Below, in pieces: positions 9,001-12,000 of a stretch of DNA of 64,000 nucleotides; the stretch's first letter is position 1, and every line of letters starts with the position of its first letter. Source of the DNA: Escherichia coli (GTDB lineage Bacteria > Pseudomonadota > Gammaproteobacteria > Enterobacterales > Enterobacteriaceae); the NCBI RefSeq assembly GCF_011045215.1, contig NZ_CP049201.1. One strand, written 5' to 3'. The position numbers are program-made.

Positions 9001-12000
9001 GAAGGCGTTCACACCGCATCCGGCAGTCATGCGTCGATGCCAAATGCGCCGCCCTAAAGCAGCGCATCCGCAATGACGTACTTATTCCTTCGGTTTAAAC
9101 CGCAGCAACCGGTTGGCGTTACTCACTACGGTAATCGACGAGAGCGCCATTGCCGCTCCGGCAACCACCGGGTTAAGCAGTGTTCCAGTAAACGGCCACA
9201 AAATACCGGCGGCAACCGGAATACCGATGCTGTTGTAGATAAACGCGCCGAGCAGGTTCTGCTTCATGTTGCGCAGCGTTGCGCGGGAAATAGCGAGCGC
9301 ATCCGCAACGCCCATCAGGCTATGGCGCATCAGGGTAATCGCCGCGGTTTCAATAGCAACATCACTGCCGCCACCCATCGCAATGCCGACATCCGCCTGA
9401 GCCAGCGCTGGCGCGTCGTTAATGCCGTCGCCCACCATTGCCACCTGACGTCCTTCACTTTGCAGACGTTTGATCGCTTCGGCTTTACCGTCTGGCAGCA
9501 CCCCGGCGATCACCTCATCAATCCCTGCTTCTTTGGCGATCGCATTGGCGGTGGTTGGGTTATCCCCGGTCAACATCACCAGACGATATCCCGCTTTATG
9601 CAGGCGTTGCAGCGCCGCCACGCTATCACTACGCAACGGATCGCGTACAGCCAGCAGGGCTACCGCTTTCCCGTCAACCGCCAGCAGCACTGGCGTTGCC
9701 CCTTGCGATGCCTGAGCTGAAATATCTGCTTCAATCGCTTTAGTATCAACTTGCTGGTCATTTAACAGCGCCTGATTGCCCAGCAATAACGCATGACCTT
9801 CAGCTTCACCGCTCACGCCCAGCCCGCGCAATGTGCGGAAACCGTTGACCTGCGGCAGCTGCATATCGCTTGCTTTATCGAGGATCGCCCGTGCCAGCGG
9901 ATGGCTGGAACCTTGTTCCAGTGCCGCCGCCAGACGCAGCGCCTGCGCTTCGTCAAAATCAGCAAATGTTTTCACTGCGACAACCTGCGGCTTCCCTTCG
10001 GTCAGCGTCCCGGTTTTATCGAACACGACGGTATCGAGTGTACTGGCGCGTTGCAGCGCGTCGGCGTCCCGCACCAGCACGCCAAACTCAGCCGCCCGCC
10101 CGACGCCGGAAATAATCGACATCGGCGTCGCCAGCCCCAGCGCACACGGACAGGCAATAATCAGCACCGTGGTGGCAATCACCAGGGTATAGACAATCTG
10201 CGGTGCCGGACCAAAGAAATACCAGATTGCCGCACTGACAAGCGCAATCACCACTACTACCGGCACAAATACGGCTGAGATTTTATCCGCCAGCTGACCG
10301 ATTTCTGGCTTGCTGCTCTGGGCCTGGCGCACCATACGAATAATCCTTGATAACGTGGTATGGCTGCCAACCGCACTGGCGCGAAACAGCACGCTACCGT
10401 CCTGCACCACTGTCCCGGCATGGACGCTATCGCCTTCGCCTTTTTGCTGCGGGATAGGTTCGCCCGTCAGCATCGCTTCATCCAGCCATGCTTCGCCTTG
10501 GGTAATCTCGCCATCTACCGGCACGCGATCGCCGGTCGTCAGGCGCAGCAACATACCTGGCTGCACTTCCGCCAGCGGCACGCTTTTTTCACCTTCGTCA
10601 GTAACCAGGCGCGCCGTCGGTGGGGTTAAATCGAGTAATTTCTCCAGCGCCTTAGAAGAACGCTGACGTGCGCGCGCTTCCAGCATATGACCGAGATTAA
10701 TCAGACCGATAATCATCGCACTGGCTTCATAGTAAAGATGCCGCGCTTCCATCGGGAACCACTGCGGCCACAGGTTGACGCTCATCGAATAGAGCCACGC
10801 CACACCCGTACCCAGCGCCACCAGCGTATCCATCGTCGCCGCACCGTTCAGCAGGCTTTTCCATGCACTGCGGTAAAAATGGCCGCCGGCGAAAACCATC
10901 ACTGCCAGGGTTATCAGGCCGATAACCAACCACAGGCTGCGGTTGTCAGCGGTGACCATCATGTTATCGCCGATCATCCCCCAGACCATCACCGGGATAC
11001 CCACCGCCAGTGCGACAATCGCCTGCCAGCGGAAGCGCTTCATCGTAGCGACGGCGGTTTCCTGCTGGCGCTCGCGGCGTTTAGCGTCATCTTCAATCGC
11101 TTCCGCGCCGTAGCCCGCTTTTTCCACCGCCTGCACTAAATCTTGTGGGGAGGCACTGCCCATCACCAGCGCAGTACGCTCCGCCAGGTTTACCCGTGCC
11201 TGAGTGACGCCCGGTACGCTTTGCAGCGCATTTTGTACGCGGGTGACACAGCTGGCGCAGCTCATGCCGCTCAGCAGCAACTGCTGGCTGTCATCGTCAT
11301 CGGCAGTCGCTGCCGGAAGCGCCTCAGAAACCGCTGTCAGTGCTTCCGACGGGATTGATGACTCCGCCAGCGGTTTAGCCTTTGGGTGGCTTACAGATGC
11401 GTCATAACCCGCTTGTTTGATGGTTTCGATCAGCTGTTCTGCACTGGCAGTCCCGGTAACGTGCGCTTCAGTGATAGACACATCCGCTTGTTCCACATCC
11501 GGGCGCTGTTCGAGACTTTCTTTCACGCGTTTAACGCAGTGACCGCAGGACAGGCCGTCCAGGGTCAGGTCGATAGTTTGTGACATAAAACACTCCTTTA
11601 AGACAGTTTTGACTGGCTGTGATAAAGGTTAAACCTTCCAGCAAGGGGAAGGTCAAGAAATTAATAACCCAGGCGAGTAAAAGTCCGTAAAGATTAAAAA
11701 ATCGGCTCGATTTGCATCAGGATTAGACATTTATCTCTTTGTTTTCCTGTAGTTAAGTTGCGGGTGCTAAGTTAAATCAGGATGCCTGAAAATCGGCACC
11801 GGGGTGAGGAATTACCTCCCGCATCTATAAAAAGGAGTTAACAAAAGATGTTAGATGCAAACAAATTACAGCAGGCAGTGGATCAGGCTTACACCCAATT
11901 TCACTCACTTAACGGCGGACAAAATGCCGATTACATTCCCTTTCTGGCGAATGTACCAGGTCAACTGGCAGCAGTGGCTATCGTGACCAGCGATGGCAAC

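Follow-up and report, generated by a model that had tools for sequence, protein, structure and literature searches.

INTRODUCTION

The copA gene of Escherichia coli K-12 undergoes a -1 frameshift that gives rise to the protein CopA(Z), as was reportedly described in 2017 both by Meydan et al. (Mol Cell 65:207) and by Drees et al. (Mol Microbiol 106:635). Frameshifting on the E. coli gene is efficient, with a drop in ribosome profiling signal past the -1 stop codon, and has been confirmed independently (PMC9548414). The frameshift product comprises 70 residues, against 834 for standard decoding (PMC5009743). The slippery sequence, a pseudoknot, and the nascent chain all stimulate frameshifting (PMC7558416), ribosomes are stalled by the copA pseudoknot in single-molecule assays (PMC6182138), and CopA(Z), the truncated form, confers protection against copper (PMC6771820). 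According to PMC9217107, which cites Drees 2017, two copA mRNAs are involved besides frameshifting.

Several other systems resemble that of copA in one respect or another. The chaperones of the CopZ/Atx1 type, such as those of Enterococcus hirae, Bacillus subtilis, and Haemophilus influenzae, share with CopA(Z) a soluble heavy-metal-associated (HMA) fold of about 70 residues, a CxxC motif, and CopA as the partner protein, but they are encoded by separate genes, whereas the E. coli chaperone is the recoded N terminus of the pump itself. Among frameshift sites, E. coli dnaX (A AAA AAG; tau/gamma) is stimulated by a Shine-Dalgarno-like sequence about 10 nt upstream of its heptamer and a simple stem-loop. 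Like copA, it is a chromosomal gene whose -1 shift takes place at an X XXY YYZ heptamer with AAG as its last three bases (PMC10861913, PMC6771820). In both genes the shift is stimulated by RNA structure further downstream, and early termination leaves a shortened protein that is functional. Human ATP7B is an orthologous copper ATPase for which a -1 frameshift has also been proposed. The ATP7B claim was reportedly made by Meydan and coworkers in 2017, alongside that for copA. According to PMC9548414, it could not be reproduced and the site shows no conservation.

Here we describe the copA locus in a stretch of 64,000 nucleotides from an E. coli genome (RefSeq assembly GCF_011045215.1, contig NZ_CP049201.1), which is referred to below as the window. 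A first-pass annotation of this DNA had placed the heptamer CCCAAAG at about codon 70 of copA, on the minus strand between positions 11370 and 11400 and in the context CAC-CCA-AAG-GCT, and had taken its conservation to show that the mechanism producing the chaperone is intact in this strain.

RESULTS

Slippery heptamer and reading frames of copA

The copA gene, encoding a Cu(I)-exporting P-type ATPase with a zero-frame product of 834 residues, occupies positions 9082..11586 on the minus strand, as judged from the list of open reading frames and from the way in which RefSeq annotates E. coli loci of the same or nearly the same sequence. A slippery heptamer of the form X XXY YYZ, C CCA AAG, is found at 11380..11386 on the minus strand (read from 11386 to 11380), within the interval given in the first-pass annotation. 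The codon number and context given there were also correct, as the zero frame reads CAC (H67) CCA (P68) AAG (K69) GCT (A70). The first C of the heptamer is a third codon base, so that the phase is X XXY YYZ; at the slip, P68 would occupy the P site and K69 the A site. Translation in the -1 frame from CCC gives CCC AAA GGC TAA, or PKG followed by a stop, and the TAA (11375..11377, minus strand) lies one codon past the slip. CCCAAAG is the only in-phase XXXYYYZ heptamer in the whole gene.

As a bare motif, CCCAAAG is not enriched in the 64-kb window, with 4 copies against 8.35 +/- 2.88 in dinucleotide shuffles. Three of these copies lie outside the copA site: the first is not in phase with its long reading frame, the second lies antisense to ybaQ, and the third falls inside a short unannotated open reading frame of 139 amino acids with a TTG start (7595..8014, plus strand).

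Predicted CopA(Z) product and the copA promoter

The chaperone frame is described by join(11586..11380, 11380..11375), covering 11375..11586 on the minus strand, with G11380 read twice after the -1 slip; it was defined from the translations and from the joined coding sequence of K-12. In the RefSeq entry for K-12 MG1655, copA (b0484) contains this two-piece joined coding sequence, YP_009518752.1, at 511168..511379, with the product name "soluble Cu(+) chaperone". The CopA(Z) predicted from the window has 70 residues, a mass of 7,481 Da (7.48 kDa), and a C terminus reading ...SHPKG*, and it is identical to the product derived from YP_009518752.1. It consists of a heavy-metal-associated domain (PF00403; E value of 1.2e-13; residues 8 to 62) whose CxxC motif is CGHC (C14-G-H-C17). 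In the PGAP annotation of the closest genome, the one genome inspected in this respect, full-length copA is annotated and the coding sequence of the 70-residue chaperone is absent.

Both proteins are expressed from one promoter, at 11626..11656 on the minus strand, with a -35 element TTGACC (11656..11651) and a -10 element TAACCT (11631..11626). Its 19-bp spacer includes the dyad ACCTTCC/GGAAGGT, a perfect 7-nt inverted repeat, and we take the promoter to be the one controlled by CueR. The promoter and the 5' untranslated region are identical to those of K-12. A scan for sigma-70 promoters with spacers of 16 to 18 bp found nothing, as expected, because the 19-bp spacer of the copA promoter falls outside this range.

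Identity with K-12 and conservation within E. coli

In the window, the 100 nt before CCCAAAG, the heptamer itself, and the 75 nt after it are identical to K-12 MG1655. Five synonymous differences from K-12 lie in codons 25 to 33 and one in codon 94. Residues 1 to 69, which form the nascent chain at the slip, are identical to those of K-12.

Among 5,426 complete E. coli genomes, the copA region was matched at 95 to 100% identity in 5,422, and the 91-nt cassette was 100% identical in 5,341 of the 5,422. At a threshold of at least 99% identity, the 461 nt around the cassette were matched in only 2,032 E. coli genomes. An exact 40-nt core was present in 5,416 of the 5,426 genomes, with roughly 6 to 10 lacking it; by design, a single mismatch in either the heptamer or the stop codon would leave the 40-nt probe without its 28-nt seed.

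Conservation and synonymous constraint in the Enterobacteriaceae

A scan with one genome per species provided orthologous loci from 80 Enterobacteriaceae, with 73 to 99% amino acid identity. CCCAAAG is present and in phase in 78 of the 80 species, and the other two, Superficieibacter electus and Pluralibacter gergoviae (loci L023 and L048, respectively), carry CCCAAAA, which is still of the form X XXY YYZ. A TAA or TGA codon is found in the -1 frame exactly one codon after the slip in all 80. The zero-frame residues over this stop vary (A/S/T/P at one position and K/D/E/N at the other) while the stop stays, again in 80/80. The third-position T of codon 70 is invariant, and GCT makes up 8% of the Ala codons elsewhere in the orthologues. 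From codon usage elsewhere in the same genes, His-Pro-Lys would be expected to be encoded as CAC CCA AAG in 0.9% of cases. Once this context is considered, the presence of CCCAAAG in copA is far beyond chance.

The codon alignment revealed a zone of suppressed synonymous variation in codons 66 to 92 (11311..11391, minus strand) that spans the whole recoding cassette. Synonymous diversity, calculated as the mean pairwise value over the first ~660 codons of the alignment with 81 sequences, was 0.074 in codons 66 to 92 versus 0.43 gene-wide, and the lowest value for a 28-codon window outside the cassette within these ~660 codons was 0.356. Diversity was zero in 17 of 28 cassette codons versus 4 of 614 outside, and none of 100,000 random codon draws was as low as the cassette. 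Conservation at the amino acid level was not higher in the cassette (0.86 versus 0.88 to 0.90). The synonymous sites of the cassette are thus under strong purifying selection, and such low diversity is the mark of an overlapping function at the RNA level.

Conserved potential for an interleaved two-stem structure downstream of the heptamer

Inspection of the sequence downstream of the heptamer for a stimulatory structure, as proposed in the first-pass annotation, revealed a conserved potential to form an interleaved two-stem pseudoknot. All of the following features lie on the minus strand. After a 6-nt spacer, GCUAAA (11374..11379), the 5' arm of stem 1, CCGCUG (11368..11373), can pair with the 3' arm CAGCGG (11331..11336), 11368..11373 facing 11336..11331, over 6 bp. 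The 5' arm of stem 2, GUCGGAAGC (11342..11350), lies within the loop of stem 1 and can pair over 9 bp with the 3' arm GCUUCCGGC (11312..11320; 11342..11350 facing 11320..11312), which contains an invariant rare Leu codon, CUU. The interleaving of the two stems gives an H-type topology with loops of 17, 5, and 10 nt.

Stem 1 is invariant in all 73 distinct orthologue sequences, and in stem 2 100% of the cells are paired in the same 73 sequences. Variation in stem 2 is confined to three pairs, is one-sided, and keeps the pairing (G-C/G-U; U-G/U-A/C-G; C-G/U-G). Of the conserved helices in the region, these two are the longest. No two-sided covariation was found in either stem among the 73 distinct sequences, so support for the pseudoknot comes from invariance and one-sided changes and not from compensation. 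When the same peptide was recoded synonymously 20,000 times, interleaved helices of 6 and 9 bp at a spacer of 5 to 9 nt arose in 0.19% of the recodings. When the 80 nt that follow the heptamer were folded with nested pairs only, the minimum free energy structure was no more stable than those of shuffled sequences (z = -0.75), a value that is uninformative here because the folding program cannot model pseudoknots. A scan of positions 9000 to 12000 against Rfam 15 (E value of 10 or lower) identified no relevant family and returned only a spurious snoRNA match. An AAA/UUU extension of stem 1 is specific to E. coli and is paired in a minority of species, and was placed outside the conserved element.

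Upstream of the heptamer, a Shine-Dalgarno-like motif (GGAG, AGGA, or GAGG) is absent from the 20 nt of copA (GACGCAUCUGUAAGCCA; AUGACGCAUCUGUAAGCCA). In place of the dnaX signals, copA has the predicted interleaved two-stem pseudoknot and, according to PMC7558416, an effect of the nascent chain. The copA site is dnaX-like in outline and differs in the type of signal.

Constraint in loop 1

Loop 1 of the pseudoknot (17 nt; 11351..11367, minus strand) has a core, GAGUCAUCA (11361..11353), that is fixed at synonymous sites across the 80 species and includes the rare codons TCA TCA; TCA accounts for 5% of the Ser codons elsewhere in the orthologues. This constraint is not explained by stems 1 and 2. 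A candidate third helix, GUCAUC(A)/(U)GAUGAC, would join loop 1 to a GAUGAC sequence about 60 nt downstream (11292..11287). In this helix 85.5% of the cells are paired, 17 of the 73 sequences lack the central pair, and helices of equal length are common in shuffled controls. Two isolated compensatory cases were found, an example being GUCAAC/GUUGAC at locus L076. Stems 1 and 2 also face competition from other conserved helices of 5 bp, and the hairpin GUCGG/CUGAC would compete with the pseudoknot. These observations raise the possibility, which we consider unlikely, that the stimulatory RNA goes beyond a two-stem H-type pseudoknot, with a third helix, a conformational switch that tunes the ratio of pump to chaperone, or a second role in the formation of the short copA transcript.

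DISCUSSION

We are highly confident that the element described here is the already characterized programmed -1 frameshift of E. coli copA, which gives CopA(Z) beside CopA. The gene, heptamer, phase, -1 stop, 70-residue product, and promoter are the same as in K-12, and there are no differences in the cassette. The first-pass annotation had recognized CCCAAAG as the site reported for the -1 frameshift that leads to a truncated CopA chaperone, and the literature agrees (PMC9548414, PMC5009743, PMC7558416, PMC6771820). Its further statement that the mechanism is intact in this strain is borne out insofar as all checkable cis elements are those of K-12; the word "shows" was too strong, as the statement follows from sequence identity, which indicates that frameshifting probably operates in this strain. 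The occurrence of frameshifting and its stimulation by the heptamer, the pseudoknot, and the nascent chain are taken from the literature, and the sequence anatomy, the identity with K-12, the synonymous constraint, and the conserved pairing potential come from the present analysis.

The following course of events can be proposed. A ribosome would arrive at codons 68 and 69 with CCA in the P site and AAG in the A site, and its mRNA entrance would then meet, 6 nt downstream, the pseudoknot in which CCGCUG/CAGCGG is interleaved with GUCGGAAGC/GCUUCCGGC. Counting from the first P-site base, the mRNA entrance of the ribosome is located at about +13. When the slippery codons occupy the P and A sites, stem 1 begins at about +13 as well, which would place it at the entrance. 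A fraction of the ribosomes would slip back by one base, tRNA-Pro re-pairing with CCC and tRNA-Lys with AAA, and would then read GGC and terminate at UAA. The 70-residue first heavy-metal-associated domain with its CGHC motif would be released as the soluble Cu(I) chaperone CopA(Z), and ribosomes that do not slip would go on to produce the pump of 834 residues.

Other readings of the conserved block have to be weighed against programmed frameshifting. The conserved block might act mainly at the level of the transcript, in the 3' end formation or stability of a short copA transcript, with the heptamer being only part of the story. The two mRNAs reported by Drees 2017, as summarized in PMC9217107, would fit such a role, as would the synonymous constraint in loop 1 that stems 1 and 2 leave unexplained. 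However, a terminator scan of the copA strand detected nothing resembling an intrinsic terminator within the cassette or beyond it, and the invariant T that creates the stop, together with the in-phase heptamer, is explained only by recoding. As a transcript-level role and recoding are not mutually exclusive, the former could exist beside the latter, and as the main function of the block we regard it as very unlikely.

We give hardly any credence to the notion that CCCAAAG is merely a chance encoding of His-Pro-Lys, without meaningful frameshifting. The absence of over-representation of the motif in the window speaks for such a reading, but codon usage would lead one to expect this encoding in 0.9% of cases and it is found in 78 of 80 species, the -1 stop is retained in 80/80, synonymous diversity in the cassette is the lowest within the first 660 codons, and experiments have been published for a strain with an identical cassette. 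The short product could also be attributed to realignment of RNA polymerase at the CCCAAA run, and the same protein would result by either route. Productive transcriptional slippage requires A/T runs of about 7 or more. The longest homopolymers here are C3 and A3, and because these runs are only 3 nt long, transcriptional slippage is unsupported. Moreover, a conserved pseudoknot at a 6-nt spacer suits a ribosomal mechanism, and the literature attributes the slip to the ribosome (PMC9548414, PMC6182138, PMC7558416). We consider slippage of the polymerase to be extremely improbable. Programmed ribosomal frameshifting remains our preferred explanation of the copA element.

The enterobacterial copA site differs from that claimed for ATP7B in its extreme synonymous conservation. 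The frameshift element of copA was already known (Meydan 2017; Drees 2017), and almost all E. coli and related enteric bacteria have it: the element is fixed in over 99.8% of complete E. coli genomes as well as in each of the 80 Enterobacteriaceae species examined. The earlier emphasis on conservation in this strain was correct in that the cassette is retained, but retention is not a property of the strain, being near-universal in E. coli and the Enterobacteriaceae. Because the cassette is so widespread, its presence says nothing particular about the strain. As expected, the strain is predicted to be able to make both the pump and the chaperone from one gene, as does reference E. coli. The near-zero synonymous variation in codons 66 to 92, the invariant -1 stop, and the invariant stems constitute a clean sequence signature by which CopA(Z) could be annotated and similar recoding sites searched for.

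Expression and recoding of copA

The copA promoter lies on the minus strand at 11626..11656, is identical to that of K-12, and contains a perfect 7-nt dyad (ACCTTCC/GGAAGGT), which is known to be the MerR-type operator of CueR. A generic sigma-70 scan missed the promoter at this position because its spacer, at 19 bp, is long.

Within the frameshift pseudoknot, synonymous positions of loop 1 (GAGUCAUCA; minus strand, 11351..11367, with a core at 11353..11361) are conserved across about 80 species, and the loop uses the rare codons TCA TCA. Neither stem 1 nor stem 2 accounts for this synonymous conservation. 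A possible, tentative candidate is a third helix, which loop 1 might form with GAUGAC at 11287..11292.

The short chaperone CopA(Z) is treated differently in the two records that we compared. In the record of the closest genome (L002, NZ_CP049204.1), which matches the window at 100%, the automated RefSeq annotation gives full-length copA alone, whereas the joined CDS of the 70-aa chaperone is annotated in the curated record of K-12 MG1655 (L001, NC_000913.3). For this one pair of records, it is the automated annotation of NZ_CP049204.1 that is without CopA(Z).

Surroundings of copA

The region from ybaQ (8068..8463) to the 3' end of copA holds a tandem array (8485..9025) in which a 101-bp unit is present in 5.4 copies, with 99% matches. 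By eye, the unit resembles a palindromic sequence of the REP/BIME type and is a candidate for that class. The ybaQ-copA intergenic gap measures 619 bp in the window versus 316 bp in K-12 MG1655, indicating that the strain of the window carries extra copies of the unit. Because of the array, the ORF list also contains a ladder of spurious ORFs that are identical to one another.

On the plus strand, glsA-ybaT is directly followed by a gene of the TolC/OEP outer-membrane family (14413..15768; PF02321, E 1e-47) and by a single ORF of 6925 codons (15871..36648), which comprises a BapA_N prefix domain, dozens of Ig-like repeats (Big_13), FG-GAP repeats and, at the C terminus, RTX nonapeptide repeats. 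Together these two genes look like an island for a giant type-1-secreted adhesin. A TolC-family gene is also present after ybaT in the closest strain, PapM-32-1; the K-12 region that we compared stops within glsA, short of the position of this putative island.

Exceptions and natural variants of the cassette

In the E. coli genome collection, 2 of roughly 5423 copies of the copA recoding cassette are on records labelled plasmid, and one genome harbors two copies. About 10 of 5426 E. coli genomes have no exact copy of the 40-nt core, which spans the heptamer and the -1 stop. CCCAAAA replaces CCCAAAG in Superficieibacter electus (L023, 1695..1791), with a predicted product ending in PKI*, and in Pluralibacter gergoviae (L048, 1695..1791), with a predicted product ending in PKN*. 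These two loci are natural variants that may bear on the importance of the last base of the heptamer.
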